Positions 5,666-55,571 of a stretch of 64,000 bases of DNA are shown one piece after another. Position numbers and translations under genes: made by a program. Source of the stretch: Patescibacteria group bacterium. GTDB lineage: Bacteria; Patescibacteriota; Patescibacteriia; Magasanikbacterales; GWA2-37-8. Positions within the stretch are counted from its first letter, which is position 1. Each line of letters begins with the position of its first letter. Location of the stretch: NCBI GenBank assembly GCA_028688375.1, contig JAQTYG010000002.1, positions 3,841-67,840 on the forward strand. Reading direction: 5' to 3'. The notes under the pieces were generated by a model. That model worked only from the letters and a program-made list of their open reading frames with translations. It was not told where the DNA came from and searched no databases.

Positions 5666-5677
5666 AATTTTTGATTT

Positions 5678-5710: not shown

Positions 5711-5718
5711 TTATATTG

Positions 5719-5790: not shown

Positions 5791-5836
5791 ATATAGCACA
5801 AAACAGTATAGCATAAAATGAAAGAAAAATCAAGAT

Positions 5837-6006
5837 GGGGTCGCCAGGGATTCTGCCTCGACTCGCTCGGTCTTCCGACCTCGCAGTCTGGCCACCGCCG
5901 TCGTCGCAGGGATTCGGAGTCGTCGCCTTCGGCTCCTCCCACGGGAACCTTCGGGTTTCCGTGTACCCTCCTCGGCAATGCGGGGAAATTTTTTCCCCGC
6001 CACCCC
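5837..6006 (-). ncRNA. GC-rich structured RNA, possibly SRP RNA (ffs); strand uncertain
   Basis: 170-nt 65% GC element between two tRNA genes with no ORF; minus-strand reading contains GUC-GGAA-GAC tetraloop hairpin flanked by GCGAG / CGAGCGAG...GAGGCAGAAU resembling SRP helix 8 (E. coli GGUCCGGAAGGAAGCAGCCAAGGCAGAUG); begins GGGG and ends CCCC. Confidence 0.35.
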
Positions 6007-6040
6007 TTTGTCCGAATCTCTGGCCAATCCAAAATAATAT

Positions 6041-6076
6041 AAAAAATGTCCCAGCTTCGCGGGACATTTTTTATAT
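6041..6076. terminator. bidirectional intrinsic terminator hairpin
   Basis: aaaaaatgtccc-agcttcgc-gggacatttttt, T-runs on both sides. Confidence 0.6.
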
Positions 6077-6079
6077 ATG

Positions 6080-6152
6080 TGGGCTGCCAGGGATTCGGAC
6101 CCTGGACCTTGTCCTTAAGAGGGACCTGCTCTACCAGCTGAGCTAGCAGCCC
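6080..6152 (-). tRNA. tRNA-Lys (anticodon CTT)
   Basis: reverse complement GGGCTGC...GCAGCCCA, D-arm GCTCAGCTGGTAGAGC, anticodon loop CTCTTAA, T-arm CAGGG-TCCGAAT-CCCTG. Confidence 0.75.
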
Positions 6153-6170
6153 GTGGTTGGTTGCGCATGA

Positions 6171-6288
6171 GTGAATCAAATGCCTGTTGAAGACAACCGC
6201 GGAGCGACGGCGACATAGCCGGAGTGAGCGTTAGGGCGACGAGCCCTCAGGCGAGGAGACCCGTGTCTGAAACGGGCATTTGATTCAC
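6171..6288. repeat. 118-nt element closed by an 18-bp inverted repeat (long hairpin) immediately 3' of rnc
   Basis: gtgaatcaaatgcctgtt (6171-6188) pairs with aacgggcatttgattcac (6271-6288), one G-U; GC-rich interior without ORF. Confidence 0.5.
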
Positions 6289-6298
6289 GAATAGTTGG

Positions 6299-7063
6299 TT
6301 ACAACGGATCGCCAGGATTTCTTTTTATAATATTAATCGTCGGTCCTTTCCAGCCTTTAGCTTGCACCCCCATTTCCGCCGCCTCGGTCTGCGCCTCCTG
6401 TTTGCTCATACCTTCGCCGGTGGCTACCAGTTCTTTGCCGATATACACGCCGACTTTAAATGTTTTGGCGTGGTCCGGGCCTTCTTCGCTCATCACTTTG
6501 TAAGTCGGAGTCACCCCGAGCAATTCCTGCGCCGATTCTTGAAATCGGCTCTTGGCATCCAAATATAATCCATTTTCTAAAATATACGGCAATTTCGGCA
6601 ACACCCATTCGGCAATAAATTTCTTCGCCGCCTCATAACCGCCGTCCAAATAAATCGCTCCGGTGACGGATTCCATGGTGTTGGCCATGATATAATCGCG
6701 GGCTTTGGTGCCGGCGTCTTTGGCTTCGCCGTGGCTCAAAAACAAATACGGTTCCATGCCGATTTCATAGGCGATGCTGGCTAGGGTTTTAGCATTCACC
6801 AGCGCCGCGCGCCAGTTGGTCAATTCGCCTTCGGGGTTGCCGTATTCATTAAAAAGAAATTCAGTCACTACCAATTCCACTACCGCGTCGCCCAAAAATT
6901 CCAGACGTTCGTTATGTCCCAGCGGAAAATCATGATGTTCATTTAAATAGGAGCGATGAACAAACGCTTGAATCAACAATTCCGGATTATTAAAAGTAAT
7001 GCCGATTTTTTTCTGCAAGGCATCAAAATCTTTTTCAATAACTTCCGGTCTGTCTGTGATCAT
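6299..7063 (-). CDS. rnc: ribonuclease III
   Basis: RNase III signature [11 protein letters not shown]-terminal dsRBD-like region. Confidence 0.9.
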
Positions 7064-7524
7064 ACATGTTTAGTTTCTTCCGGCTTTTTTTCCGGAGTAG
7101 CCGGCGCTTCCGGCGCCATGTTTTTATAAATCGCGCCTAACACGCCATTCACAAATTTACCGGATGAATGCCCGCCATAACTTTTGGCCAATTCAATCGC
7201 CTCGTTAATAGCAACTTTGGGCGGCACATCTTTGCTGAAAGCTAACTCAAAAATGCCCAGCCGCAGGATATTTCTATCCACCACGGTAATTTGGTCAATC
7301 GGCCAATCCGAAGCGTATTCAGTGATAATCTTGTCAATTTTTTTCAAATTGGCAACCACCCCGTTGATTAAACTGACCGCGAAATCTTTTTCCTGCAATC
7401 CGTCGCCGAATTCTTTGAGCGTATGCTCTAAAATTTCCGGCAAACGATTGGTGTCTTTTTCGCGGAAATCCCATTCAAACAAAGTTTGCATGGCGATGCT
7501 TCTCGCCAAATGGCGATTGGACAT
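7060..7524 (-). CDS. nusB: transcription antitermination factor NusB
   Basis: NusB-like helical protein ([14 protein letters not shown]...), 4-nt overlap with rnc start. Confidence 0.8.
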
Positions 7525-7571
7525 AGGCTAAAGATCAAGATTTAAACGAAAATTTACTGGGGAGAGGGGCC

Positions 7572-7784
7572 TTACTTTTTGCCTCTTTTAGCGGTGCGGG
7601 CCGTTTTACGGCTGACGCTCAGAACCTCACGTCCTTTATAGGTACCGCAAAATCCGCAAGCGCGATGCGGCCTGATCGGTTTTTCGCACTTGGGGCAAGA
7701 ATTAATGGTCGTAGCGGAGAGCGCGAAGTGCGCTGCACGGCGGCGTTTGTGTGACGAAGTCCGTCGATGGCCTGGTAAACCCAT
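7572..7784 (-). CDS. rpmF: 50S ribosomal protein L32
   Basis: zinc-ribbon CPKC...CGFCGTYKGREV and basic N-terminus typical of bL32. Confidence 0.75.
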   Translation of the reverse strand: MGLPGHRRTSSHKRRRAAHFALSATTINSCPKCEKPIRPHRACGFCGTYKGREVLSVSRKTARTAKRGKK

Positions 7785-7895
7785 ATATTTATTTTAATGA
7801 TTGATAAGTAAAATCGGCTGTAATTATACTATAAAATTAGCCTTTTGGCAAGAGAGGTTTTTTTGGCTAAAAATGGCGGCCGGGCAGAGGGGGGG

Positions 7896-7924
7896 TTGAC
7901 AAAAAGGTAAAAGTGTGCTATTAT
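7896..7924 (+). promoter_or_regulatory. sigma70-type promoter (TTGACA-17-TATTAT, extended -10 TG)
   Basis: ttgacaaaaaggtaaaagtgtgctattat; near-identical copy at 17287-17315. Confidence 0.6.
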
Positions 7925-8170
7925 ATTCAGTTAACAATTCAGACCGCCTGTTTCTGGAGAGAGTCGGGCGGACAAAAATGGCTTTAATTAGCCAAAGTTA
8001 TTGAAAAACTTCTCGTTTTACGGGGGTTTTCGCACCTTAAAATGGTTTTAGCGCTAAATAAAGGGTTGTCGTGTAGAGATAGTATCTGATTGATCTGTCT
8101 ATAGAAAAATAAATTAACACCAACCTTTTATTGAGCGCTAAACCCCCAACCAACCACCAAGGAGGAATCC

Positions 8171-8602
8171 ATGGCAAACGAGGATACCAACAAGTTCGCG
8201 TGCGTGGCTTGCGGTCGCCCCATCAACTCCGACGCGGCGAAGATCGCGGCGCGAATCCCGGCGCGCGACGTCATCGTCGCGAAGCTGGGGAGGGCCGACC
8301 TCACGGTCGCGGACCTCGGCAAGTTCGTCGTGTGCGGGGGCTGCGGCGTCATCGCCGACCGCAAGGGGGCCAAGACGGCCGCCTTCACGGCCGCGCTCGC
8401 CGCCGTCCGCATGGACGAGGAGGAGCGACGAGCCCTCGCGGCGGCGAGGCAGGAGGCGCAGGAGGCGGTGAAGTCGAGGATCGGCGACCTCTTCGGAGTC
8501 TCTATCGAGGAGACCGAGGAGGCCACGGTCACGACGATCACGCCGACGGCCGCGAGAAAGGTCAAGGAAGGGGGGCGGAAGAGGGTCCGCAAGGCCTCGT
8601 AG
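8171..8602 (+). CDS. GC-rich (about 68%) ORFan, putative zinc-ribbon protein
   Basis: strong SD ccaaggaggaatccATG; two CxxC pairs (CVAC, CGGC); Ala/Arg/Glu-rich; GC content far above flanking genes. Confidence 0.5.
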   Translation: MANEDTNKFACVACGRPINSDAAKIAARIPARDVIVAKLGRADLTVADLGKFVVCGGCGVIADRKGAKTAAFTAALAAVRMDEEERRALAAARQEAQEAVKSRIGDLFGVSIEETEEATVTTITPTAARKVKEGGRKRVRKAS

Positions 8603-9307
8603 GCCACCGCCGCAACTGTGTGAGTCGTTCTTTTTCTAGAAAGAGAGGTCTGAATGCACTGGCCCGCGCTGTAGGTAACAGATAAGCGAGTGCCGGCATG
8701 GCCCCAACGGATCCGTCATCCGTCCGGTAAAATGACGAAGGCGACGCCGAGCGCATCAGTAACTCGGCACCCCAATTGCGTTTCTGAAGCGAATCGTTTC
8801 GGAGACACAACAGCGGTTCACAGCGCGAACAAAGGAGGTTCAATTTGAGCTGATGAGAAAGCGACGCGCAGCAAAAAAAGCGCGATGGCAACAATCCAAA
8901 TTCTCACCTATCAGGTGAACCAAGGAGGGGAAACCTCCCCGGAAGCCGAACCTAAGCAAATTCGGCAGTTCGTTTTCGTCGCCCATCATCCGCGGCGCTA
9001 GTGAGGGGGTCCTGTGCGACCTCCATGCCTCGCCGAAGCTACGGCTTGCGGCTGAACAGGCAGTGCGCGGCGCGCGGATCTGGGGTGCGCCGACGGCGGG
9101 TGGACATCGGTTGTTCTCCCGCCCTCAACAATCACGGAAGTGAAGAAAGGAGAGGTGGACCGGATGAATGCATTCGGGTTTACCTAGAGTGGCATGGGCC
9201 ACGCCACCGGCCAAAAACCGGGATGCGCTGCGAGGTCGTCTCGTCTGACCCGCCCGGCGCGCGGCGAACTAACTAAATGCTCTTTCGAGGTAGTCGTTCG
9301 AGTTCGA

Positions 9308-9350
9308 GGCCGGTCACAACTGCGTGACCGGCCGCTTTTATTTATTTGGC
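9308..9350 (+). terminator. intrinsic terminator closing GC-rich island
   Basis: perfect hairpin ggccggtcac-aactgc-gtgaccggcc followed by gcttttatttattt. Confidence 0.75.
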
Positions 9351-9361
9351 AAAGATACACC

Positions 9362-9390
9362 TTGACATTTTTTAAAATTGTATATATAAT
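9362..9390 (+). promoter_or_regulatory. consensus sigma70 promoter (TTGACA-17-TATAAT)
   Basis: ttgacattttttaaaattgtatatataat, followed by SD agaggaggagggag and ATG at 9443. Confidence 0.65.
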
Positions 9391-9442
9391 GGTGTTTAAA
9401 AATTAAACCCGCTACGAGCGGAAAAAAGAGGAGGAGGGAGAA

Positions 9443-9715
9443 ATGCGTTCTTTGAAAAGGCTGGGTCGTTTCATCTTGGTTTGGGAATCGGCTTTAGCCG
9501 GCGTGGTCTTCCTGGCCATCGCCGTTACCGCGTTATTCGATCCTTCGCTCGTGAAAACGGTGGAATCGCTCGATTGCTTCATCAAGGCGAAAATCATCGC
9601 CGCCTATTGGTTGCCGTCCTGGAAAACGGATGAAATAATCGTTGCGGCGTCGTTTATTTCTGGCGCGTTCAACATGGCGATCGTCCTGGCCTCAGCTATT
9701 CGGACGCGCCGATGA
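9443..9715 (+). CDS. small membrane protein
   Basis: 90 aa, two predicted TM helices, strong SD; stop overlaps next start (ATGA). Confidence 0.5.
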   Translation: MRSLKRLGRFILVWESALAGVVFLAIAVTALFDPSLVKTVESLDCFIKAKIIAAYWLPSWKTDEIIVAASFISGAFNMAIVLASAIRTRR

Positions 9716-9990
9716 AAGGAGCCATCATGGCAGGCAAACTCAAAAGGATGTTCCTGATCACCCTTTCAGCTTTGGTCGCTGTTGGTGTCGCCACGACCCA
9801 ATCGGTGGTAGAGATCTTCTTGTTCCTCGTCGGCATCGGGTTGTGTATCGAGGCATTCAGCCAGCCCCCGTGGTTCTCTTGTTTTTACGTTTTCGTTGGC
9901 ATGTTGTCGCTGTATCTGTGCGGAAAGGTTTCCGGCGCCGATTTGTCCGGAACTTGGTGGCAGCGTTTCGTCCTCCCTCATCTGGAGTGA
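9712..9990 (+). CDS. small membrane protein
   Basis: 92 aa, hydrophobic segments, translationally coupled to upstream ORF. Confidence 0.5.
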   Translation: MKGAIMAGKLKRMFLITLSALVAVGVATTQSVVEIFLFLVGIGLCIEAFSQPPWFSCFYVFVGMLSLYLCGKVSGADLSGTWWQRFVLPHLE

Positions 9991-10084
9991 CGGGCGATGC
10001 CCCGTCTCGCGTTGCGCGCTCCTCTCCGGGGCGCGCCTTTGTTTTATTGCTAAAATTCATCAAATCGGCTAAGATTAAAGCAAT

Positions 10085-11101
10085 ATGTTGAAGATTGAAA
10101 CAAAATTTGAAATGAGCAACAGCTGGTTGAAGGAAAATGTCAGCCGGCCGCCTTTTTGCCAGTCGTTTGAATGGGAAGAAATATTGTCGCGTGAAGGCAA
10201 AGATGTTGAACGCTTGGCCGTATTTGATGACGAAAAACCCGTGGCTATGGCACTGGTGGAATATCATAAATTGCCGTTCGGCTGGCGGTATGCTTTTTGT
10301 CCGAAAGGACCAATTACAGCTCGCAGTTCACAGCCCACAGTTCACAAAATTTACGAAGTTCTGGCCGGTTATTTTAAGAATAAAAAATGTATATTCTTTC
10401 GTTTCGAACCGATGGCGAACTGGGAACTGGGAACTGAGAACTGTGAACTTCGCAAAACCGTCGACATTAATCCGCGGGCGACGATGATTTTAGATTTGCG
10501 GCGTACGCCGGATGAACTACTCGCCGGTATGCATCAAAAGACACGATACAACATTAACTTGGCGCAGAAAAAAGATTTACGGGTAAGCGATATTAAAGAT
10601 GCCGACCTGTTCATGACTTTAATGAAAGCCACCGGTCAGCGCGATAAATTTCGTCTGCACCAGGTTAAACATTATCATGAAATAATTTTTTCTCCGTTGG
10701 CGCACCAGTTAACTGTTTTTTACGGACCACGCCCGATTGCCACAGCGATCTTTGCCGGCTTTGGCGATACTTTCACTTACGTTTTTGGCGCGTCCGATTA
10801 TGACCACCGCTCGCTAATGGCGCCGTATTTAATTCAATGGGAGGGGATTAAAATGGGGCAAAGATACGGCTATAGATATTATGATTTTTTTGGCATAGCG
10901 CCACAAAAAGGAATAAAGAGTAAGGAACAAGGAATAAATGATTATGAATATGACGTAAAACACCAATATGCCGGGGTGACAAGGTTTAAGCAGGGGTTTG
11001 GCGGCGCGTACCATGAAGACCCGGGAACATTTGATTTGATTATTTCACCGTGGAAGTATAGAGTATATAATTGGTTGCGGAGGATAAGAAGAATGATTTA
11101 G
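10085..11101 (+). CDS. FemAB-family peptidoglycan interpeptide-bridge aminoacyltransferase
   Basis: 338 aa, FemAB-like C-terminal region (YGYRYYDFFGIAP), acyltransferase fold pattern; contains in-frame oligonucleotide repeats. Confidence 0.6.
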   Translation: MLKIETKFEMSNSWLKENVSRPPFCQSFEWEEILSREGKDVERLAVFDDEKPVAMALVEYHKLPFGWRYAFCPKGPITARSSQPTVHKIYEVLAGYFKNKKCIFFRFEPMANWELGTENCELRKTVDINPRATMILDLRRTPDELLAGMHQKTRYNINLAQKKDLRVSDIKDADLFMTLMKATGQRDKFRLHQVKHYHEIIFSPLAHQLTVFYGPRPIATAIFAGFGDTFTYVFGASDYDHRSLMAPYLIQWEGIKMGQRYGYRYYDFFGIAPQKGIKSKEQGINDYEYDVKHQYAGVTRFKQGFGGAYHEDPGTFDLIISPWKYRVYNWLRRIRRMI

Positions 11102-27214: not shown

Positions 27215-27332
27215 ATAAAGCCCCCGACGTCCGCCTTGCTTGCCCGCCCTGGGCGGGGGCGGAGTCGGGGTCCCGACCCCGACCTTGCGTCGGGGCGTCG
27301 GGAGGGATAATGGGATAATTTATTTATTCGTT

Positions 27333-29672
27333 TTGCATATGCGCGAAAATTTTGGCGCGATATCTAGCGGAAGAGAAATGTTTTTCGCACGAAAAGCCGA
27401 GCATGACAGCGTGAAAGAAACGGAGAGAATAAAAGAAATAGTATTGGACTATTGTTCTGACACAGGTATTTTGCGAGAAGAGAAAGGCCGGCGTATTTGG
27501 GACATCGCGGCCTTCAAGGATATTGATTTTAGGCATGCTGGTGCGAAAGAAGAAGTGCCGGTCAATAAACATGATTTCTTCCGGGCACTATGCACAGAGT
27601 CGGGCGTTTCTTTGGCGGATTATCAGTCGGCCGAAAAGAATGAGAAATTGAAAGATCGGCCGATTTTTTATTATCCCAGCAGTATCGACGATGCGATGTC
27701 GCCAAAGAAAATAGCGGCGAACGAGAGTTATATTGGTTATTGGGATTTAGGAACGGTCGTCAAGGATTGGTCCGTTCCGGTGGAACTTCCGTCAGGAGAA
27801 AATGTCGGACTAAATGAGTTGTTTATAACCAAAATGATTTTTGGCAAATTACACGGGCGCCGTGATGAAAAGGGCAATCTAATAGTAGATGACCCGGAAA
27901 CTAGCGAACCGGTGAAGTTTACTGCAAAAATATTTGACAGGAACTTTGGCGGCGTAGGGAAAAGAGGAGAAGGAGGAAATACCAGCTTTTCAACTCCAAT
28001 CGGATATTTGCAGAAAAATGCTCCACATATAATGGAAAGTGGCCTGTTGTTGTCGAGCGACTTTCGTTCATTAAGTGAGAAAAGCGGTAATATCTATCGG
28101 CATCGTTATTCGGTTGCGGCCAACGGCATCGCCTATATCGGCGGCGCAAAATATAGTCTTGGCGCAGATTTCGACAGTCGCAGACAACCTGAAAAACGAG
28201 GCGCTTATTTTGTTGTCGAGCTTGGGAAAGGTCTAGCGGGTATTATTGAAAAGAGTAGGGGAGGGTATGAATCCGTAACCCATGTATTTAAATTGAAAAA
28301 CGAAGAAGAAATCGAAAAAATTCGTGCCAACAGTGGCGAGAAGAAAAAACGTGGTGACGTGGTTTTTAAAAAAAATGACATAGAAATTTTGCCATATGGG
28401 AAGGCCGATTCGAATCGTCGTTTTAGCGGCGAATCAGGAAAGGAATATAGCAAACGCATGCGTTTGCTGGAGAACTGTGAGAGTACGGAAAAAATAGTCA
28501 ATGATATCTCTCTTAATACCGGCATCAGCGCGCATCGCGACTTGTCATGGCACGAACAAGAATGGCTGGCCGCTTCCGCCGGAAATATTGAAGGCATGAG
28601 CGGTGAAATCATAGCGCAGGCCAAGAAATTTGGCATTGATTTTCTGAGGTCTTTTTTATCGTGCGAATTTGGTATGGATTCAGGCAGAGCGATTATTGAT
28701 ATCGCCAAAAAGATTCCACCGGAAGTGTCAAAGAAATTATTTTACAAATATGGCGAATTTGTAAACGCGGCTGAAGAGGCAGCAGAAGATCTGGAAAATC
28801 AGTATGGAGTGGCGCTGACGGAAGTACAAAAAAATAGGATAATGGAAAAAATGTTGCGCCGCGGTCGTGACCTGTTGCTTAATTACGCCTCGAGAGCCGA
28901 AGCGGGAACACATGGACAAACTGCACAAGCAGAGGCGTTGCAAATGCTCAATGACCTGGAAAGAGTTCGGTCGGATATGGTATTATTCTCTGCCGTATTT
29001 AAGGAAGCCAATATTCCGTTAGAACAAATGAAAGATACGGAAGTCTCGTCTGTGAACGCGCGGTACATGAATAGGCCGGATAAAAAGCGAATGATGGAAT
29101 TAGCGGAAATGAATTATGGCAAAAGCCGAGTCGGTCAAGAAATCGTAAAGCCGTCGCTCGCCAAGGCGATGGAAGACCGAACCAATACATTCTATCTGCT
29201 TAAAAAAGACGACGAAGTAATAGGCGGATTTCGCATTCAAGACGCAAAGGATAAATATTATTTTGGTTCATTCAACATGGACCCGAATGCCAAGGCGAGC
29301 GGCCTAGGCAATGCCATGCTGGAAAAAGTTATTGCGGATTTGTCGCGAAAAAAACCGGTGGAAGCCGTCGCAGAAGCGGAAAAACCGGTCATTTCTTATT
29401 ATGTAAACAAATTGGGTTTCAGAATAGCTGAATTTTTACCGGATATGGCCGGCACAGGAGTGGACGGATTTAAAATAGTAAAGGACGGACAAAAAATTGA
29501 AGAGATTGAATCAAAAAAATATACGGATAAAAATAAGTTTATCCGCGACGTGCAGAAAAATATCGCCAACGGCGGGATTATCGTCGGTTATCGATATGAT
29601 GAGAAAGCCAAAGTATACGAAGTGAGTTATGGCAGAGTAAAAGAGCCGGTCCAAAAGCGCATGGCAGCCTAA
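27333..29672 (+). CDS. large hypothetical protein with C-terminal GNAT-like acetyltransferase domain
   Basis: track ORF 27240 start lies in GC-rich hairpins; likely start MRENFG at 27333; C-terminal FRIQDA...GLGNAMLEKVIADL...YYVNKLGFRIAEF resembles GNAT motifs A/B. Confidence 0.45.
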   Translation: MHMRENFGAISSGREMFFARKAEHDSVKETERIKEIVLDYCSDTGILREEKGRRIWDIAAFKDIDFRHAGAKEEVPVNKHDFFRALCTESGVSLADYQSAEKNEKLKDRPIFYYPSSIDDAMSPKKIAANESYIGYWDLGTVVKDWSVPVELPSGENVGLNELFITKMIFGKLHGRRDEKGNLIVDDPETSEPVKFTAKIFDRNFGGVGKRGEGGNTSFSTPIGYLQKNAPHIMESGLLLSSDFRSLSEKSGNIYRHRYSVAANGIAYIGGAKYSLGADFDSRRQPEKRGAYFVVELGKGLAGIIEKSRGGYESVTHVFKLKNEEEIEKIRANSGEKKKRGDVVFKKNDIEILPYGKADSNRRFSGESGKEYSKRMRLLENCESTEKIVNDISLNTGISAHRDLSWHEQEWLAASAGNIEGMSGEIIAQAKKFGIDFLRSFLSCEFGMDSGRAIIDIAKKIPPEVSKKLFYKYGEFVNAAEEAAEDLENQYGVALTEVQKNRIMEKMLRRGRDLLLNYASRAEAGTHGQTAQAEALQMLNDLERVRSDMVLFSAVFKEANIPLEQMKDTEVSSVNARYMNRPDKKRMMELAEMNYGKSRVGQEIVKPSLAKAMEDRTNTFYLLKKDDEVIGGFRIQDAKDKYYFGSFNMDPNAKASGLGNAMLEKVIADLSRKKPVEAVAEAEKPVISYYVNKLGFRIAEFLPDMAGTGVDGFKIVKDGQKIEEIESKKYTDKNKFIRDVQKNIANGGIIVGYRYDEKAKVYEVSYGRVKEPVQKRMAA

Positions 29673-30475
29673 GTTGTTGCGCTCATATCATACATACTTT
29701 TCGGTTTCAGTTCGTTCGGAAATTTCGTTGTTGCCCACAAATACTCAAATAAACTGCGAAACATTTCATAAATAATTTTATCTTCGATTATCACCCCGAT
29801 GAGGGATTTACTGGATAGAGTGGTAAAAGAAATTTTGCCGGCGTATATTTGCAGAAGAGTGGAAGAAAAACTTATCGGGGCGGCGGTCAAAAATTTAAAC
29901 TTGGTCAGCTCGGAATCATAGTCGGTAGTCATGTTGCGGTTAAAAGCGGAATCATTTGAAATGATCCGCTTTATTATTTTTTTTGCTTTTCTTTCTTTCA
30001 AATACAGATCGTTTAATTTGCTGAATTCATGAATAGTAAACTCAACGTCGCCCATGGTCAGAACCTCGCCTGTCTGCGCCAGAGTATCCCACCATACTTT
30101 TTTGATACCGTCTTCGCCTTCAAAAAACCGCACACCCGGCCGGCCGGCGGCGAGGTTGAAAGAGGAAAGGAGGTTGGGCAAAACGCCGTCAATGGCGTTT
30201 TTAGCCGAAAGAGCCGCCTGTTCGCGCTCTTCCACAAAGTCGCGCAGTTTATTGGGGTGGCTGGCAATAAAGCCGGCCACTTTGCCCTCTGGTTCGTTCT
30301 TTTGGACCAGCCCCTTGGCCTCCAAGTCGGCCAATACCTTGTATGCCAAACTACGCTTTAGGCCTGATTCAGCCGCTATTTGAGTGGCTTTTTGCTCGCC
30401 TTTTTGCAATAAAAGCTCATAGATTAGCGCTTCTTTGGCCGAAAGGCCGGTTTGAGTGAGAATGTTTTCGTACAT
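29669..30475 (-). CDS. TrmB-family transcriptional regulator
   Basis: N-terminal winged HTH LSAKEALIYELLLQKGEQKATQIAAESGLKRSLAYKVLADLEAKGLV; 268 aa. Confidence 0.6.
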   Translation of the reverse strand: MYENILTQTGLSAKEALIYELLLQKGEQKATQIAAESGLKRSLAYKVLADLEAKGLVQKNEPEGKVAGFIASHPNKLRDFVEEREQAALSAKNAIDGVLPNLLSSFNLAAGRPGVRFFEGEDGIKKVWWDTLAQTGEVLTMGDVEFTIHEFSKLNDLYLKERKAKKIIKRIISNDSAFNRNMTTDYDSELTKFKFLTAAPISFSSTLLQIYAGKISFTTLSSKSLIGVIIEDKIIYEMFRSLFEYLWATTKFPNELKPKSMYDMSATT

Positions 30476-30639
30476 AAGATAGTTAATTGGTTGATTAGTT
30501 TATCGGTTTATTAATTATATAATAACACACTTTAGCTATTTTGTCAAGAGCGATTGACAAAAATATACAGAAAGTTAGCTAAAATTTTGCTTTAATTAAC
30601 CTAAAATTCATAAAAAATGAGCATATTTGTTCTATAATC

Positions 30640-30668
30640 TTGACATTTCTATCTAGATATGGTATACT
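30640..30668 (+). promoter_or_regulatory. consensus-like sigma70 promoter (TTGACA-17-TATACT)
   Basis: ttgacatttctatctagatatggtatact. Confidence 0.55.
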
Positions 30669-30674
30669 GTATTC

Positions 30675-30990
30675 ATCAAGATCGAAAAAGGACTTGATGC
30701 AATCGCACCTTACAGAAGACGGCTGATGACAGAACTCGCTTCAGGAGAGAAGAAGCGGGCGGACACAAAGCCGGATTCACTAAACGGGACGGCGACGGTT
30801 TGCCTCTGGATAGCGGAGAGATATAGATAGAGGCGAAACGTTGCTCCCTGTGGAGTGAAAAAAGTTGTCATTCTGAGCGAAGCGAAGAATCTTTACAATA
30901 TATACGATTACCGTTGGAGAGAGCGGTGGCCAATTTACAAGAATAACAAGAGTTCTCTCCATTTAAAGAGAACTCTTTTTGTTTCGGTAA
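30675..30990 (+). ncRNA. candidate about 310-nt non-coding transcript (promoter to intrinsic terminator), function unknown
   Basis: no credible ORF; ends at hairpin aagagttctct-ccattta-aagagaactctt followed by tttgttt (30945-30990); contains one copy of the hairpin repeat family. Confidence 0.25.
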
Positions 30991-31554
30991 AGGAGAGACG
31001 GGAAAACGGCCTATCAATAACAAATAGTAATTGTGGCCAAACATTTACCCTCTCCTTTACCGGAGTAAAATCCGGTTCGTTCATTGGTTCTTTATAACAT
31101 GATTTCATATTGCCAGTTGAGACAGGAGAGAAATCTCCATCGGCGACATGAAATATGTCTGACTTACTTTTTACCTATTATATAGGTGGAAAGATCGGAT
31201 GCGGTTGATGGGCAGATTTGCGGGAACGCGAACTGTTCCACCGGCATCCGACTACTCGCTTGTCAGAGCGCGTAGTACCGAGTGCAACCCGTCCTAATAC
31301 TTCGCAAGAAGAATTGGGACAGGGACAATCGGCGCTACAGAGAGAGTGGCGACGAAGTACTTTGACAATTTACTTTCAGAAGACAGCAACAGGCCGCTGT
31401 GTCATCCTGAGCGGATCCGCCGACAAGCGGAGAAGTCGAAGGATCCCTTCGGCGCAATCGTTGTTGGTGTTTTTTGAAGGCGCCATCACAAGGTGTGATG
31501 GCGCAAAAACAACAAACCCCGGCGCCGTGGGTGAAACGGGCGAGTGAGGGAAAA

Positions 31555-32742
31555 ATGAAAGTTGTCGTGTGCGGACCGCCGCACAGCGGCAAGTCCGTGT
31601 TTCTCACGGGTCTCGTCGGTCAGTTGGACCGACGGGACTACTACCTTTTTCGGGCCTGCCCGGATGGCGAAGGGAGCTGGACGTATGCCCATGAGGGCAA
31701 CGCGGCTCTCCGCCGCAAGGGCGGGTTCACCACGGAATTCGTGGAGTGGTGCGTCCGCACTCTCCACAACAACAACATGGCTCCCTGTGTCCTGGTGGAT
31801 GTGGGGGGACGAATGACGGCCGAGAACCGGCGGATCATGGCGGAGTGCGACTTCGCTATCATCCTCGCCGGCGATCCGGCCGCCATCGGCGAGTGGCGGA
31901 ACTTCTGCTCCGAGTGTGGCTTGGCAGTAATCGCCGAGCTGCATTCGGACTACCGCGGCCGAAAGGACGTGGTCGAATGTGAGAGTCCGGTGGTGCGCGG
32001 CAGCGTGCATCACCTCGAACGGGGGGAAGACGTCACGAGTCGGCCCGCGATAGAAGCGGTGGGTCGCCTCATTAACCGGCTGCTCGACGAGCAGCGCAGG
32101 GAGAGGGAGAAAAAAATGGACAATATCGTGAACGCCATCACCGTCCTGATCGCCGAGCTGGCCGTGGCCCTCGGCAAGCAGAAGGTCAAGAAGACCTTGC
32201 CGAACGGCAAGGTCATCGAGACCATCGAATGGCTGGGCGAGGACCTCCGGTCCTTGTCCCGGCTCCTGCACTCCAAGTCGGCGGAGTACGCCGGCAAGGA
32301 CGTGAGGATCGACGGGGGAGCTCCGGGCTTCCTCGTTGCCGCCCTGGTGCACGAGTTGCACCCGGCGGACGTGTCGGTGAACTCACCGGATGGGTTCATT
32401 CCCATCCGGTGCCAGTCGCCCGAAGGCGACGGGCGCGGGGATAACCTGCGGTTCCGCGTCGAGGACCGGGGCGATTTCACCCTGGTTACCGCGGAGCAGC
32501 AGGATCCGTCCCGCCCCCTCGACCCGGCCAAGCTGGGCGAGATTGCCCCACCCGACGTGCCGATGGGGACCATCGTGGTCCTCAACGGCAGGATGCCCCA
32601 CTGGCTTTTGGCCAGTCTGGGCATGAGCTACCACGGCCGGACCAAGGCCGTGGCGGCCAACCAGCCGGGGCTGGGGGCGACGGTGTTCATGACCCACTCG
32701 GCTTCGGTCGAGTTGGGCTCGATGATCACGGTTGCGCTCTAG
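31555..32742 (+). CDS. GC-rich (about 66%) P-loop NTPase-domain protein, unknown family
   Basis: ATG after SD gagggaaaaATG; Walker A VVCGPPHSGKSV at residues 4-15; about 395 aa; preceded by about 350-nt structured leader. Confidence 0.5.
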   Translation: MKVVVCGPPHSGKSVFLTGLVGQLDRRDYYLFRACPDGEGSWTYAHEGNAALRRKGGFTTEFVEWCVRTLHNNNMAPCVLVDVGGRMTAENRRIMAECDFAIILAGDPAAIGEWRNFCSECGLAVIAELHSDYRGRKDVVECESPVVRGSVHHLERGEDVTSRPAIEAVGRLINRLLDEQRREREKKMDNIVNAITVLIAELAVALGKQKVKKTLPNGKVIETIEWLGEDLRSLSRLLHSKSAEYAGKDVRIDGGAPGFLVAALVHELHPADVSVNSPDGFIPIRCQSPEGDGRGDNLRFRVEDRGDFTLVTAEQQDPSRPLDPAKLGEIAPPDVPMGTIVVLNGRMPHWLLASLGMSYHGRTKAVAANQPGLGATVFMTHSASVELGSMITVAL

Positions 32743-32966
32743 GCGATACGAAAAAAATCTCACACCCGTGAGTTGCGGCAAATCCTAACCGCGTAAAACG
32801 ACAGGTCGACTCGCATCCGTAACTGCGCGCCAGTCCGAGTAAGGCGTGAATCTCGGAAACACTCGGAGGCCGACATCGCACATGTCGGCCCTCCAATTAC
32901 CGCACCAAATGCTTTGGCGCGGTTGAGGAGAAAACAAACGGGTCAAAGTGACCCAAAGGAGAGGCA

Positions 32967-33773
32967 ATGGAAAACAATATCAACAGCGACACTACCACCA
33001 ACTCCGACAACGACCGCGACATCGTCGCGGAAGCCGCCGAGCGGTACGCCGAAGGGCGCCAGCAAGCCATCGAGGTCTGCCGCGTCGTGGCGGAGGCGGC
33101 GAGGGTCCGGCGCGTTAAGGATGACGTGCCGGAATGCGTCGCGGGCGCTGCCCGCGACTTCCTGGCGAAGGCGACGGCGCCGGCCCGACACGAGTCCCGT
33201 GTCGCGGCCACCGTCGCGTGCGCGCGCGCATGGATTCGCGCCTTCGGGCGCGAGTCCATTGAGGAGTACGAGGACATCTGCGTCCTCATTCTCCTCATCG
33301 CCGACCTGTTCGGGGTCGGCGGTCCGAACGGGTTGGGTGGCGCCACCAGGCGCCACCCGGCTTTCACCGCCCTTGGAAAGGGGCGGTGGCAGGCCAGTGA
33401 CGGCAGCGCCTACCGCGCCGCCGTCGTCGGCGCCGCGGCCGAGCTTTTCAACAAGCTCGGCTCCGTCGTCGTCGACGCCGAGGGGTCCATCAGGACCCAC
33501 TCGGCGGTGATCGACAGCGACTGGGCGGTGGAGGCCATCGGCGAGCCCGAGTTCGCCGAGGCGTTCTTGCGCCACCTCCTGCTCGTCCTCGCCGGTCCAG
33601 AGAAAATCTGGAGCGTGTTCGACACGGGCAACTGGTGGGGGATTGAGCTCCCCCAGGGCGAGGACCGGCGCACGGCCATCGCGGCCGTTTCCGCCTCATT
33701 CAACGACGCGCATCGCATGATGTGCGTCGGAAAGGAGGATGTTACCGTGCCGGCCGACGAGACCGGCTGGTAG
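32967..33773 (+). CDS. GC-rich (about 67%) hypothetical protein
   Basis: 268 aa, SD aaaggagaggcaATG, Ala/Arg/Glu-rich, no recognisable motif. Confidence 0.45.
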   Translation: MENNINSDTTTNSDNDRDIVAEAAERYAEGRQQAIEVCRVVAEAARVRRVKDDVPECVAGAARDFLAKATAPARHESRVAATVACARAWIRAFGRESIEEYEDICVLILLIADLFGVGGPNGLGGATRRHPAFTALGKGRWQASDGSAYRAAVVGAAAELFNKLGSVVVDAEGSIRTHSAVIDSDWAVEAIGEPEFAEAFLRHLLLVLAGPEKIWSVFDTGNWWGIELPQGEDRRTAIAAVSASFNDAHRMMCVGKEDVTVPADETGW

Positions 33774-33893
33774 ACAACACACGCGCACCGTAACTGTGCT
33801 AAACACAACCCGAGTTGAACGTTACGGGTTCAGCTTTATCACTCGGACGGGCGAATTGCACATTCGCCCCTCCAATTACCATAATATTATTCT

Positions 33894-34099
33894 GGATTCC
33901 CGCCTACGCGGGAATGACAAAATAAAACTATGGTTGAGGAGGAAAACCCGGAAGATTTCCATTCAAAGGAATCTCTCCTCCCGCGAAACGGGAATCGAAA
34001 GGGTTTAATCTGAAATTAAAAAACCCCGGCGTAAAGCCGAGGTTTTTTAATTTATTATTGCCGAAGGGATCCTTCCCCGCCCAAGGCGGGTCAGGATGA
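33894..34099. repeat. cluster of hairpin-repeat-family copies downstream of GC island
   Basis: ggattcccgcctacgcgggaatgacaa (33894-33920) and gccgaagggatccttccccgcccaaggcgggtcaggatgac (34059-34099), inverse orientation relative to 17053-17160 copies. Confidence 0.55.
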
Positions 34100-34197
34100 C
34101 CCCCCACCACTTTTAATTTCTAACACGCTAATAAATAAAGCCCTGTTATCTAACAGGGCTTTTTGTGAACTGAGCTTGTTGCAAAAGTGGTGGGGGG

Positions 34198-35346
34198 TCA
34201 CTTTTCGCTTCTCACTATTATTTTCAGTTTATCCGGCACGCCCGGCGCTTTGCTCACCCAGCTTGGGGTGAATTTGATATTCATGCCGGTGACATGGGGG
34301 AGAGAAACAATATATCGTTCGATTTCACCTTTTTCTTTGTTTAAAAAGTTTTCTTTGTTTAATAATGGCGCATCCGGCGCTAAAGTGACGAAGGCCTCGG
34401 CCGCCACCGCCAACTGGGCGCTCTGATTGGTAAAATCAGTGGCCGCCAAAGTGATTTTCGGGTTATCGCCCACCGAAAGAATTTTTTCCGACGCCGCGTC
34501 AACGCTACCGGCGATTTCTTTGTTTATAATATCGGCCAAATCTTTTTTATTATATCTGATCAAAGTCAGGGTGCTGGTGCCGGACAGGGAAAATTCCGCC
34601 ACTTCGTCGCCGACTTCGTGCGAAGGCGCGATGCCGGTGTCTCCGACCCCGATAATCACCTGGTCATATTGGCTACCGGCGACCGGGAAGGCGCTCAAGT
34701 AGGCCTGTTTTATTTTTTCGGAAAAATCAGTTTGGGCGGATTTAATGTCGTTTTCGGTTACGGCCCCGACTTTACCCGAACCGCCGGACATTGGTTTGGT
34801 ACTTTCGGCGTAGATTACTTTTTGTTTTTCCGTGTTCAAACCGGGGATGGTAAATTTGCTCGGGCCGATGTCGCCGCCCAATCCGGATTGATCGGCGTAA
34901 ACCGCTGCCGTGATTTGTCCATTGGCTGGAATGATAACGCGGTCGGATAGCCGGAACAAAACCCCTTCTGGTGTAAGAAAGCGGGTGGTTTTAACCAAGG
35001 TTTGGCTTTCGTTGGTGGTGTTATAGATAACCAACTCGCCTTTGGCCACGCCCTCAACCAGTTTAGTGCCGGTGGGGAAGTATTTTTCCGTCCAATAAAA
35101 TTTAGTGGTGGTGACTAGCGCCGGCAAAGATTTTTCGCCATTTTTTCGCGCCTCAGCGGTGATAATGATATTAACCGTTTCCGCGTCTTCCTTGGCGATA
35201 ATGGTAATCTCCGTTTTCTTGAACATGGTGAAAATTACCACGCCGAGCAGGACTACGGTAATAAACAAAAACGAGAGCGCGATCGTGCGATAAACGCGCA
35301 CCGAGGGTTCCGCCGGCAGGCGAGTTTGTAAACGATGAGCGATCAT
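34198..35346 (-). CDS. membrane-anchored hypothetical protein (downstream of pilB)
   Basis: 382 aa, N-terminal TM helix, beta-rich extracytoplasmic region. Confidence 0.45.
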   Translation of the reverse strand: MIAHRLQTRLPAEPSVRVYRTIALSFLFITVVLLGVVIFTMFKKTEITIIAKEDAETVNIIITAEARKNGEKSLPALVTTTKFYWTEKYFPTGTKLVEGVAKGELVIYNTTNESQTLVKTTRFLTPEGVLFRLSDRVIIPANGQITAAVYADQSGLGGDIGPSKFTIPGLNTEKQKVIYAESTKPMSGGSGKVGAVTENDIKSAQTDFSEKIKQAYLSAFPVAGSQYDQVIIGVGDTGIAPSHEVGDEVAEFSLSGTSTLTLIRYNKKDLADIINKEIAGSVDAASEKILSVGDNPKITLAATDFTNQSAQLAVAAEAFVTLAPDAPLLNKENFLNKEKGEIERYIVSLPHVTGMNIKFTPSWVSKAPGVPDKLKIIVRSEK

Positions 35347-35449
35347 AAATAGAAAACAGTAAATAGTAAATAGAAAACAGAAAATTGCGAATTATACGGT
35401 GCCTGTTTTCTGCTTTCCGTTTTCTGTTTACTTATATTATTATATCACA

Positions 35450-37165
35450 TTATTCCGCTACCTCGAACACCTCATCAACACTGGTTAATTTATCCAGCGC
35501 CTTGAGCATGCCGTCCTGTACCATGGTGACCATGCCATTTTTTACGGCGATTTCCTGGATAGTATATTCGGAGACTTGTCCGCTCAAAATATTCGTTTCA
35601 ATTTCTTTGTTCATGGTGAAAATTTCGTAAATACCGACGCGTCCCTTATAGCCCAAACCACTGCATTTCGGGCAGCCTTTGCCGGCGTAAAAATGCAGAT
35701 CGTTGAAATTAACATTCTTTTTTTCCGCCTCCGGCAAATCATTTAAAATTTTCATCACTCGTTCCATTTTTTCCGCGTCCAATTTAACCTCTTCTTTACA
35801 AGATTCGCAGATGCGGCGAACGAGACGCTGGCCGATAATGGCGTTCAGCGCCGGCGCCAGCAAGAACGGCTTTACTCCCATGGAAAGAAAACGAGGCAGG
35901 GCGCCGGAAGCCGAGTTGGTATGGATGGTAGATAACATCAGGTGGCCGGTGAGAGCCGCTTGAATGGCGATTTCCGCTGTTTCCAGGTCGCGGATTTCGC
36001 CGACCATACAAATATCCGGGTCTTGGCGCAGAATTGAACGCAAGCCCTTGGCGAACGTATAGTCTCGGCTGGCGTCAACCTGGCTTTGGTTGATGCCTTC
36101 CATTTTAATTTCCACCGGATCTTCCAAAGTAATAATTTTTACGCCCGGTTTATTCAAGGTGCGCAAAATCGCATACATGGTGGTGGTTTTACCGGAACCG
36201 GTCGGACCGGTGGTGATAATCATGCCGTTGGGGCGCTCCACTTCATGGCGCAGGCGCTCGTAGGCTTCGCCACGCAGGCCCAAATCGTCGTAAGTCACGC
36301 CTTTGGAGCCACTGTGCAAGATGCGCATCACCACGCTCTCGCCATAGGTGGTCGGCATGGTGGAAACGCGGACATCGATGGAGCTGGAAGCCAGTTTCAG
36401 AGTGACACGGCCATCCTGGGGCTTGTCGGTCACGTTAATCTTTAAACCGGCCAGCAGTTTAATGCGCGAAATAAATCTTTTCCAATCTTCTTTGGGCAGG
36501 TCGGCCACATCGTGTAGCACGCCGTCAATGCGATAGCGAACGGCGATGCCTTTTTCTTCGGCCTCCACGTGGATATCGGAAGAGTTTGTTTTCAAGGCCG
36601 CCGCGATCATCAGCGTTAAGATATCGGTGATGGACACGTTTTTGAATTGTTCGGCCAGGGTTTGTAAATTGGCGATGCTTTCCTGAAATTTGTTTAATTC
36701 CTCGTCAGTGATGTTGATGTCTTTGGAAATCGGTTTAATGATCGGCAGAGTGGCGTAAAGTTTAAAAACCGTTTCTAAACTGTTGGCCGAGATGATATAT
36801 AATTGTGGTTTGACGTGGTGACGTTCGCCGAGTTGATAAGCATACTCATTGACTGCTTCATCCACCTCTAAAACCGCCAGTCGCATATCATCCGGAGTGA
36901 AATAGAAACACACGATTTTTTTCTCGCGCGCTTCGGCTTCCGGGATGATTTTGAGCGATTCGGCCGAGACCGGAAATCCGACCATGTTGATGTAGGGCAA
37001 ATTTAGTCCGGCCGCTTTGGCGGCGGTTTCTTCTTCTTTGGCTTTCAAATCAAGATCGTGCATTTTTTGGTCGAACTTTTCCTGTGTCGTCGGCGCGTTG
37101 GAAGTTTTTTTAACCGCCCCGCCTGGTTTTTTGACTAAGTCACTGATTGTGGGGAAGTCGGACAT
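35450..37165 (-). CDS. pilB: type IV pilus / type II secretion assembly ATPase (PilB/GspE family)
   Basis: Walker A TGPTGSGKTTT, Asp box, His box, C-terminal CxxC tetracysteine (CPKCSGLGYKGR). Confidence 0.9.
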   Translation of the reverse strand: MSDFPTISDLVKKPGGAVKKTSNAPTTQEKFDQKMHDLDLKAKEEETAAKAAGLNLPYINMVGFPVSAESLKIIPEAEAREKKIVCFYFTPDDMRLAVLEVDEAVNEYAYQLGERHHVKPQLYIISANSLETVFKLYATLPIIKPISKDINITDEELNKFQESIANLQTLAEQFKNVSITDILTLMIAAALKTNSSDIHVEAEEKGIAVRYRIDGVLHDVADLPKEDWKRFISRIKLLAGLKINVTDKPQDGRVTLKLASSSIDVRVSTMPTTYGESVVMRILHSGSKGVTYDDLGLRGEAYERLRHEVERPNGMIITTGPTGSGKTTTMYAILRTLNKPGVKIITLEDPVEIKMEGINQSQVDASRDYTFAKGLRSILRQDPDICMVGEIRDLETAEIAIQAALTGHLMLSTIHTNSASGALPRFLSMGVKPFLLAPALNAIIGQRLVRRICESCKEEVKLDAEKMERVMKILNDLPEAEKKNVNFNDLHFYAGKGCPKCSGLGYKGRVGIYEIFTMNKEIETNILSGQVSEYTIQEIAVKNGMVTMVQDGMLKALDKLTSVDEVFEVAE

Positions 37166-55203: not shown

Positions 55204-55323
55204 TTAACAATAAGCAATTAACAATAAGCAAATTGTTTAAAATAAATTTAGATGAATTAAAGAGAAGTAAAATTCCGTTTCGACAAACAGAATTAAGAAG
55301 TTGCGCTAGCGCGCAATAATTTT

Positions 55324-55407
55324 GGTGCGGACGGAGGGACTCGAACCCTCAAGGCCGAAGCCATACGCTTCTGAGACGTACGCGTATACCAGTTCCGCCA
55401 CGTCCGC
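55324..55407 (-). tRNA. tRNA-Leu (anticodon CAG), CCA encoded
   Basis: acceptor GCGGACG/CGTCCGC, anticodon loop CTCAGAA, long variable arm TGGCTTCGGCC, T-arm GAGGG-TTCGAGT-CCCTC, 3' ACCA. Confidence 0.7.
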
Positions 55408-55560
55408 ATGATAGATACGAAATACGAAAGATACGAAAGTACGAAAACAATTTACGTACGAAAGTACGAATTGTACGAAAGTACGAAAACGATTTTTTGG
55501 TTCGTATTTTCGTACCTTTCGTAGTTCGTACGTTCTGTAGTTCGTACGTTTTTTAGTTCG
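55405..55560. repeat. intergenic array of direct and inverted GTACGAAAGTACGAA repeats
   Basis: cgaaagtacgaa units 55420-55500 and reverse complements ttcgtacctttcgtagttcgtacg 55500-55560. Confidence 0.6.
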
Positions 55561-55571
55561 TTACGTTCTTA

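Follow-up and report, generated by a model that had tools for sequence, protein, structure and literature searches.

A GC-rich, hairpin-dense AAA-Csx3 cassette divergent to a TrmB-family regulator gene in a Patescibacteria genome

The cassette and its two genes

We analyzed 64,000 nucleotides (nt) of contig JAQTYG010000002.1 (positions 3,841 to 67,840, forward strand; NCBI GenBank assembly GCA_028688375.1) from a Patescibacteria group bacterium, hereafter called the window, and in particular a cassette of two co-oriented genes, gene 1 and gene 2, that lies divergent to a gene for a TrmB-family regulator. The two genes proposed in an earlier note on this DNA were recovered as open reading frames (ORFs), each with a Shine-Dalgarno sequence (Table 1). 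With moderate confidence we read the cassette as a TrmB-adjacent accessory operon that combines a CRISPR-independent, Csx3-type sensor with cargo and whose transcript has been selected for dense folding.

The composition of both genes differs strongly from that of their surroundings. Gene 1 has a GC content of 0.649 and a GC content at third codon positions (GC3) of 0.848, and the values for gene 2 are 0.684 and 0.877, compared with a GC content of 0.45-0.49 and a GC3 of about 0.45-0.58 in the genes adjoining the cassette and a GC content of 0.475 in the distant flanks. GC content climbs at ~31.2 kb and drops at ~33.8 kb. The excess over the host that the earlier note had reported was borne out at 65% and 68% for the two genes versus ~47.5% for the flanks. 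The 5' side of gene 1 is a spacer of 1,079 nt (30476-31554) without a credible ORF.

Table 1. Coordinates of the cassette, its domains and its predicted signals in the window
Feature	Position	Strand	Description
TrmB-family regulator gene	29669-30475	-	Pfam TrmB HTH (helix-turn-helix), E 4.3e-13; GC 0.45, host-like; resident gene, divergent from the cassette
16-nt tandem repeat	30480-30517	.	2.4 copies of TAGTTAATCGGTTGAT (Tandem Repeats Finder); between the trmB start and its promoter
Predicted trmB promoter, sigma-70-like	30519-30547	-	TTGACA-17-TATTAT, 11/12, TG
Predicted cassette promoter, sigma-70-like	30640-30668	+	TTGACA-17-TATACT, 11/12, extended -10 TG
Predicted leader	30676-31554	+	~880 nt; densely folded; without conserved ORF
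Hairpin-dense zone	30900-34200	+	Coincides with the putative transcription unit; includes both coding sequences
Gene 1	31555-32742	+	395 aa; start MKVVVCGPPHSGKSV; Shine-Dalgarno GAGGG
P-loop NTPase domain	31555-32079	+	Gene 1 residues 1-175; Walker A GPPHSGKS
Middle divergent Csx3-like domain	32116-32430	+	Gene 1 residues 188-292; profile-profile comparison
C-terminal Csx3 domain	32443-32739	+	Gene 1 residues 297-395; Csx3 match
Hairpin repeat, copy 1	32860-32901	+	118 nt after the gene 1 stop; z -3.2
Gene 2	32967-33773	+	268 aa; Shine-Dalgarno AAGGAG
Hairpin with UUCG loop	33230-33259	+	13-bp stem; part of the hairpin tiling
Run of hairpins	33335-33358, 33359-33395, 33399-33425, 33429-33470, 33476-33506	+	Part of the hairpin tiling
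Hairpin repeat, copy 2	33840-33880	+	Stem GGCGAAT/ATTCGCC; z -3.2
Bidirectional terminator-like hairpin	34013-34053	.	AAAAACCCCGGC...GCCGAGGTTTTTT; inverted repeat I9; 18-nt arms, 94% complementary

The earlier note had taken both proteins for ORFans. This fails for gene 1, which has at least 750 relatives in a word-indexed protein search, more than 100 of them full-length at 40-72% identity. The PADLOC AAA-Csx3 model (C3a67, PDLC01059) spans the protein end to end with an E value of 2.8e-56, aligning residues 3-393 to profile positions 7-379 of 382, and Pfam Cas_csx3 (PF09620) hits residues 318-391 above its gathering score (E 1.5e-15); a Csx3 fold is present. The PADLOC Csx3-AAA model covers the nucleoside triphosphatase (NTPase) part (E 1.6e-54), and the Crn3/Csx3 equivalog of NCBIfam, TIGR02579, scores 49.6 bits, under its cut-off of 55.4. 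These profile matches place gene 1 in the AAA-Csx3 family over its full length; by the domain comparisons given below, it consists of an NTPase domain and, after it, two tandem Csx3 domains. Our AlphaFold model of it was built on 65 homologues and has a mean predicted local distance difference test score (pLDDT) of 93.7; a search for a solved structure of a full-length AAA-Csx3 member found none. Shah et al. (2018) delimited the family as cluster 67 among type III accessory genes because its members adjoin type III-A/B cas genes, and they proposed that the Csx3 domain exerts allosteric control over the ATPase (PMC6546367). A preprint survey from 2024 still lists the fused ATPase as "of unknown function".

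The NTPase domain carries the invariant motifs CPDGEG and VDVGG, and its nearest folds are MinD, ParA, dethiobiotin synthetase, the N-terminal domain of CTP synthase and the GPN-loop GTPases. We rejected an identity as an AAA+ ATPase since these nearest folds belong to the SIMIBI class, which makes the "AAA" of the family name a misnomer; the Pfam AAA_22 model reaches 18.6, under its cut-off of 27. Identity to the NTPases of the MinD/ParA/BioD type is only 11-14%, and the Walker A motif of gene 1 is canonical (GxxxxGKS) whereas that of MinD/ParA is deviant, with different partner domains. The two Csx3 domains of gene 1 align to each other with a probability of 88% and an E value of 3.1e-6 (HHalign). 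The middle one has a nearly invariant histidine pair within HELHP (H266 and H269) at the position of H57/H60 of AfCsx3, the Crn3/Csx3 protein AF1864 of A. fulgidus (PDB 3WZI, 6YUD; PMC7371418), and also retains an NSPDG motif.

The C-terminal domain retains the residues equivalent to the ligand contacts G45, R46 and W50 of AfCsx3 as well as H60 and H80. Three other positions are substituted family-wide: D69 by Q in all 113 relatives compared, R71 by G in 111 and H57 by M in 101. Thus, from the ring-nuclease residue set H57/H60/D69/R71/H80 the C-terminal domain of gene 1 has H60 and H80 only. In AfCsx3 itself, the D69A mutant is inactive and R71A strongly impaired as a ring nuclease (PMC7371418). 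Because D69 and R71 are lacking and the ligand contacts are kept, we infer from these residues that gene 1 is more likely a sensor than a plain ring nuclease. Such a sensor might recognize a nucleotide resembling cyclic tetra-adenylate (cA4), or else an RNA tetranucleotide or tetraloop, and would couple recognition to NTP hydrolysis. Gene 1 differs from Crn3/Csx3 further in that its Csx3 domain is fused with an NTPase as well as a second Csx3-like domain, and in falling below the equivalog cut-off. Csx3-AAA proteins (cluster 35; cyanobacterial Csx3') contain the same two kinds of domain in the reverse order. The domain order of cluster 67, with the NTPase N-terminal and Csx3 C-terminal, is that of gene 1, which also shares the motifs invariant across the family.

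Gene 2 is no ORFan either. A first search gave four weak relatives only; profile searching against 1.84 billion representatives brought up 523 clusters at E <=1e-3 and 232 at <=1e-10. The relatives have a common N-terminal core of ~110 residues, and the residues R74, R78, G137, R140, A143, D145 and G146 are invariant in the family, which shares the conserved motif LGKGRWQASDG. The AlphaFold2 model is helical (pLDDT 76). Gene 2 itself has no match in Pfam, NCBIfam or PADLOC, nor in sequence and profile searches of the PDB; tblastn against the INPHARED phages and PLSDB plasmids found nothing, and fold searches returned no informative neighbor (Foldseek against BFVD, E >=0.3). Pfam and PHROGs searches of 65 members of the family gave nothing consistent. 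The protein is identical to NCBI PHD72_01610. Relatives whose context could be read come from contigs of phages or prophages (64-67% GC), one of them adjoining an integrase, an early-gene array and an endolysin and another near baseplate and sheath genes, and eight further relatives occur in IMG/VR viral contigs.

The earlier note had pictured the pair as an ATPase with its partner, but this is no conserved two-gene system. Gene 2 stands beside an AAA-Csx3 gene in this window only: no other AAA-Csx3 locus has a gene 2 relative, and none of the relatives in phage contigs has AAA-Csx3 as its neighbor. Gene 2 is thus cargo that varies between loci, not a constant companion of gene 1, and its unnamed helical family is otherwise known from phage genomes.

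The TrmB slot and predicted transcription signals

A scan of species-representative genomes identified 111 relatives of gene 1. Of the 80 loci kept, roughly one half come from Patescibacteria and most of the others from uncultured Clostridia and Chloroflexi. AAA-Csx3 is widespread, with Patescibacteria making up about half of the species-level genomes that carry it. Cas10/Cmr2 and RAMP genes are neighbors at Chloroflexi loci only, and no cas genes were seen at the Patescibacteria loci inspected. The window has no CRISPR array that we could find and no cas genes among the larger ORFs screened, the small ORFs not having been screened individually; gene 1 has no type III interference gene adjacent to it there, and PADLOC-DB 2.0 recognized no complete system, with gene 1 matching cas accessory models only and gene 2 nothing. 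The window neighbors comprise FtsH, an 810-aa GNAT-domain protein, TrmB, PilB, ThrRS, GyrA, UvrA, RNase J and similar housekeeping genes. In contrast to cluster 67 as defined by its type III neighbors, the window and the other Patescibacteria loci inspected have TrmB as the conserved neighbor.

A TrmB gene lies 0.3-4.4 kb upstream of AAA-Csx3 on the opposite strand at no fewer than 13 Patescibacteria loci. At eight of them a homologue of ~800 aa resembling the GNAT protein precedes it, as in the window, where the 810-aa protein with its C-terminal GNAT domain (27240-29672, +) is convergent with the TrmB gene. What follows AAA-Csx3 varies: small genes without a known function, DEAD/DEAH helicases, or a MoxR AAA+/vWA pair with a HrpA-like helicase. 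The identity of TrmB to that of the window (25-43%) is uncorrelated with that of Csx3 (30-66%). This incongruence together with the variable cargo fits a conserved slot with exchangeable contents, and cargo appears, from these comparisons, to have been exchanged horizontally between loci. A conserved neighborhood outside CRISPR suggests a role for Csx3-type sensors beyond CRISPR immunity, and the TrmB regulator with its divergent promoters offers a tractable handle on it.

The GC excess follows the gene lineage. Every AAA-Csx3 gene at least 41% identical to gene 1 has a GC content of 0.50-0.66, which is 0.10-0.24 above its own flanks, in hosts of ~0.33-0.49. A second AAA-Csx3 clade, linked to MoxR-vWA, is likewise GC-elevated, and the clades from Saccharibacteria, Clostridia and Chloroflexi have host-like GC.

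Three other neighborhoods of the family were noted. On a plasmid- or phage-like contig encoding ParB, SSB and PemK toxins (L009, 5244-11164), AAA-Csx3 lies just 3' of Cas6, Csf1 and Csf3, an association with type IV CRISPR and not type III. The AAA-Csx3 genes of Saccharibacteria (L025-L037 and others) are ~33% identical to gene 1, host-like in GC and unstructured, in a neighborhood distinct from the TrmB slot: a MYG1/UPF0160 exonuclease gene is 3' in 17 loci, an unknown gene of ~530 aa 3' in 14, and an unknown gene of ~114 aa 5' in 15. In six further Patescibacteria loci (L057, L059, L061, L065, L069 and L072) a conserved set begins with a more distantly related AAA-Csx3-like gene and comprises a ~164-aa protein, a bpMoxR AAA+ and a vWA protein, to which several add a HrpA-like DEAH helicase of ~1,060-1,080 aa; at L073 the 164-aa protein is accompanied by a 1,114-aa helicase, and the MoxR-vWA pair is absent. 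The islands at these seven loci are all hairpin-dense and GC-elevated.

The consensus promoter and long structured leader that the earlier note had described upstream of gene 1 are both there. The predicted cassette promoter would, by its consensus match, start transcription near 30676, and the leader folds with z-scores (defined in the next section) of -6.0 for 30676-30990 and -9.6 for 30991-31560. It holds two copies of a host hairpin element, at 30867 and 31401. The small RNA also suggested for this region corresponds to no known one: Rfam searches, of the whole window at gathering threshold and of 30400-34300 at E <=1, gave no leader or spacer family. BLASTN of the leader and spacers against the related loci showed nothing conserved outside the Csx3 coding sequence, and hidden Markov models (HMMs) built from families of small ORFs 5' of AAA-Csx3 in relatives (clusters 2, 21, 38 and 76) had no match in the leader. 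By its location, the 16-nt tandem repeat is a candidate operator. At the other end, the terminator-like hairpin is likely, by its form, to be the 3' end of the cassette transcript. The zone of high hairpin density runs from just after the plus-strand promoter to this hairpin, which fits a single sense transcript of ~3.4 kb, and judging from these signals the cassette is probably one transcription unit.

A direct repeat of ~41 nt follows each gene. Copy 1 consists of CACTCGGA, the stem CCGACAT/ATGTCGG with the loop CGCAC, and then CCTCCAATTACC; between the copies these flanks and the loop YGCAC are conserved and the stems differ by compensatory changes. The repeat may be a processing or stabilizing element. 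The two copies bracket gene 2 only.

A perfect 16-nt inverted pair (31438-31453 with 34060-34075) belongs to a family of hairpins beginning with GTCATYC. Its members are intergenic in this genome (17054-17134, 30867-30890, 31401-31453, 33894-33918 on the minus strand and 34060-34105 on the minus strand) and in a distant relative (L001, 5105-5131), with variants ending in GGAATCC or GAAGGATCCCTTCGGC, and they look, from their sequence and placement, like a repetitive extragenic palindrome (REP) or a miniature inverted-repeat transposable element (MITE) of Patescibacteria. Because the family is host-wide, occurring also at 17054 and 17113, the inverted pair does not mark the ends of the cassette. 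The repeat flanks of the earlier note are accordingly real, but they are not cassette-specific. We rejected an integron or an att-flanked unit: an integrase is missing, and each repeat either belongs to the host-wide family or brackets gene 2 alone. The island consists of genes 1 and 2 only, with no mobility gene and no terminal repeats of its own.

Hairpin density

Folding was scored in 300-nt windows against dinucleotide shuffles over the whole 64 kb (mean z -1.29, standard deviation 1.96), and in relatives with 12-25 shuffles; all structure evidence is computational. Ten windows in the 64 kb had z < -5, and eight of these were contiguous within 30901-34200. Values across the zone ranged from -4.6 to -11.2, both coding sequences included, and the flanks at 28801-30600 and 34201-36000 had z near 0. 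The remaining two windows below -5 were a tRNA region and the RNase P RNA (z -10.6, window at 53101). On the z-score measure the island is as structured as a ribozyme gene of the same genome. The RNase P RNA (RF00010; 52966-53373, +) scored 91.1 bits with an E value of 3e-28, just under the Rfam gathering score of 100, and is therefore missed by a default Rfam scan.

Both coding sequences are tiled by back-to-back hairpins with stems of 9-19 bp and loops of 3-8 nt, and the density of uninterrupted stems >=8 bp long is 8.75 per kb in the zone, compared with 1.51 per kb over the 39 kb of genes used as controls. Controls from GC-rich contigs and from synonymous-codon shuffles led us to reject an artefact of GC content or codon usage. 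A phage contig of 65% GC that carries a gene 2 relative had a mean z of +0.19 and a minimum of -2.3. Two Patescibacteria of 63% GC have the island without a GC contrast, at z -4 to -10 with flanks near 0. In shuffles of synonymous codons that kept the protein, codon usage and GC3, gene 1 had a z of -7.1 and gene 2 of -8.2, compared with -1.9 to -3.0 for three control genes, and this shuffling cost genes 1 and 2 16-19% of their local folding energy.

Relatives, in hosts of 30-63% GC, are hairpin-dense 5' of, within and 3' of the AAA-Csx3 gene. The GC-elevated AAA-Csx3 genes have an in-gene z of about -3 or lower, except at L008 (-0.8) and L015 (-2.1), and those with host-like GC have z near 0. 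The window clade thereby differs from the type III-linked Chloroflexi members of cluster 67, which are neither GC-elevated nor hairpin-dense. Two viral or virus-like contigs also carry such segments. On a 167-kb contig classed as viral (L100; IMG/VR UViG_3300012009_000091), the region 4800-10300 holds an AAA-Csx3 gene of 41% identity and a 573-aa ORF in a hairpin-dense segment with sharp boundaries (z -4 to -12, flanks near 0). On a myovirus-like contig (L091, 1501-2700) the two genes 3' of a gene 2 relative have z -5.8 to -8.8, and hairpin density is therefore not confined to AAA-Csx3 modules.

The loops differ between the strands. Over 16 islands, GNRA and UNCG together accounted for 99 of the 467 sense-strand tetraloops and for 25 of the 349 antisense ones; GAAA was found 30 times in sense-strand loops versus 5 for TTTC, and TTCG 17 times versus fewer than 5 for CGAA. 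A general purine bias of coding strands was rejected as the cause, the control genes having GNRA or UNCG in 2 of 59 tetraloops. These loop statistics point to selection on the sense RNA. The sites of translation initiation are open, with a pairing probability of 0.27 for the start codon of gene 1 and an average of 0.39 from -30 to +20 of gene 2. Since the ribosome-binding sites are open, the hairpins would more likely stabilize or protect a translatable mRNA than silence it.

Interpretation and further observations of the window

In the reading that we favor, an accessory operon with a Csx3-type sensor and a transcript selected for folding, the cassette would be the cargo of a conserved accessory-gene slot divergent to the TrmB gene in many Patescibacteria. 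Transcription would run from the promoter at 30640-30668 through the leader, gene 1 and gene 2 and end near 34013-34053. The product of gene 1 would couple a Csx3-type sensor to an NTPase of the SIMIBI type and act without a neighboring CRISPR-Cas system. Selection for hairpins in the sense transcript would drive GC3 upward, the hairpins would yield a long-lived, nuclease-resistant and still translatable mRNA, and this property would travel with the module between genomes. The high GC content is probably, at least in part, a result of selection for RNA structure.

Several points weigh against this reading. Both strands fold well, with a mean z of -5.95 for sense and -5.27 for antisense, so the case for the sense strand leans mainly on the loop statistics, and the tetraloop bonuses of ViennaRNA partly favor GNRA and UNCG to an uncertain extent. 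The RNAalifold consensus of ten homologues was weak (-63 kcal/mol for 1283 columns; covariation term -0.32), which led us to reject a single conserved RNA structure in the Csx3 coding sequence; without positional conservation, foldedness would be what is maintained and not one particular fold. The histidine pair of the middle domain and the NSPDG motif leave room for a composite active site or ring-nuclease activity, and no member of the AAA-Csx3 family has been characterized by experiment. The window covers 64 kb of a ~98-kb contig in an incomplete metagenome-assembled genome (MAG), and a type III system or other cyclase could lie elsewhere. A terminator-like hairpin with a T run (30948-30977) sits inside the leader, and the single transcript and TrmB control are drawn from consensus matches only.

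The foremost alternative is that the cassette was recently acquired by horizontal transfer from a bacterium or phage of high GC content and simply has its composition, with the hairpins an incidental by-product of GC-rich coding for proteins rich in Ala, Arg and Gly. It would account for a GC3 of 0.85-0.88 beside neighboring genes at about 0.45-0.58, and it is in keeping with the 64-67% GC of the phage-like contigs in which gene 2 relatives lie, with the exchange of cargo between loci and with related modules on a plasmid-like contig and an IMG/VR viral contig. We consider it unlikely, however. The 65% GC phage contig is unstructured, as are the gene 2 relatives at L005 and L090, and synonymous-codon shuffles (z -7 to -8) lower the local folding energy at constant protein, codon usage and GC3. 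Furthermore, hosts of 63% GC keep the contrast in structure without one in GC, and the TrmB slot is conserved across distant Patescibacteria without a drift of the composition toward the host. The horizontally acquired, defense-type module of the earlier note survives in its accessory, defense-related look, its atypical composition, its type III-associated family and the exchange of cargo. The foreign-looking GC content, however, is not simply that of a donor: the hairpin tiling accompanies it in every relative and persists in a 63% GC host that shows no GC contrast.

That gene 1 is instead a working ring nuclease of the Crn3 type, as an off-switch for type III CRISPR elsewhere or an anti-CRISPR of a mobile element, seems rather improbable to us. 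The Csx3 fold, the conserved H60, H80, G45 and R46, the additional histidine pair of the middle domain, the Chloroflexi members beside Cas10/Cmr2 and RAMP genes, and one relative on a viral contig and another next to type IV cas genes are all compatible with it. The family-wide replacement of D69 and R71, needed in AfCsx3 (PMC7371418), argues otherwise, as do the sub-threshold equivalog score and the lack of a CRISPR array or large cas gene in the 64 kb and of cas genes at the Patescibacteria loci inspected, and this explanation leaves the NTPase domain and the hairpins unaccounted for.

The hairpin-dense segment could also be a mobile element with a single-stranded stage, by transfer of single-stranded DNA or through an RNA intermediate, in which case the hairpins would serve that stage and not the mRNA. 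This would suit the folding of both strands far beyond shuffles and the sharply bounded hairpin-dense modules with similar genes in chromosomes of the candidate phyla radiation (CPR), a plasmid-like contig and a viral contig, as well as the inverted hairpin elements that flank the cassette and a serine recombinase ~1 kb upstream at seven loci. We regard it as very improbable, given that only the sense strand is enriched in stable RNA tetraloops, the zone coincides with the promoter-to-terminator unit, the flanking hairpins are a host-wide family, and the island of the window encodes no integrase, transposase, relaxase, replication protein or reverse transcriptase. A chimeric joining of a GC-rich fragment into the contig during assembly or binning, which the abrupt change of composition within a MAG contig might bring to mind, is barely credible, since TrmB followed by a GC-elevated AAA-Csx3 recurs in independent JGI, ENA, NCBI and Logan assemblies, identical proteins were recovered from other contigs, and a host-type hairpin element lies at 31401 inside the GC-rich segment.

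A bolder form of the favored reading, which is possible and which we put forward tentatively, is an undescribed class of transferable "armoured" operons, several kb long and headed by AAA-Csx3, whose sense transcripts would be selected to fold almost throughout into hairpins capped by tetraloops, leaving just the ribosome-binding sites open. The structure would then be part of the function, and the foreign-looking GC content a by-product. Such modules, often with DEAH/HrpA-like helicases and MoxR-vWA pairs, would occupy a TrmB-controlled slot in the chromosomes of Patescibacteria and occur also on a plasmid-like and a viral contig. If so, the structure might for example let the RNA survive and be translated while single-stranded RNA is destroyed; alternatively, a hairpin or tetraloop might be the ligand of the Csx3 domains and helicases.

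Extensive local folding throughout a coding RNA, as seen here, is known from the long-lived mRNAs of type I toxin-antitoxin systems such as hok and, as ordered structure on the scale of the genome, from RNA phages and viruses. The cassette differs from these in its open ribosome-binding regions, in having no evident antisense RNA or toxin and in being a multi-kb operon of ordinary DNA-encoded proteins. A functional tiling would represent structure of ribozyme strength across whole bacterial operons, which would be unusual. A GC3 of 0.85 in a genome of 47% GC is normally read as foreign; here it probably reflects, at least in part, selection for hairpins at synonymous sites, which is a caution for the detection of genomic islands by composition. 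The gene 1 family is already known, though uncharacterized. In the searchable literature we found no description of the TrmB-linked, CRISPR-independent context, of tandem Csx3 domains with substituted catalytic residues or, above all, of operon-wide hairpin tiling, and these three features appear to be undescribed.

Two other regions of the window stood out. A second GC-rich patch (8100-9400, 0.55-0.58 GC) lies 3' of a bL32-like gene (7572-7784, -). It contains a 143-aa ORF with paired cysteine motifs (8171-8602, +), overlapped by antisense ORFs and followed by ~1 kb without a clear gene, in which 8686-8985 folds with a z of -5.0; this patch may be another small atypical insertion. Dense tandem repeats of TACGAAA/TTCGTA units with periods of 8-42 occupy 55413-55567, between tRNA-Leu (55323-55407) and the gene for a solute-binding protein.

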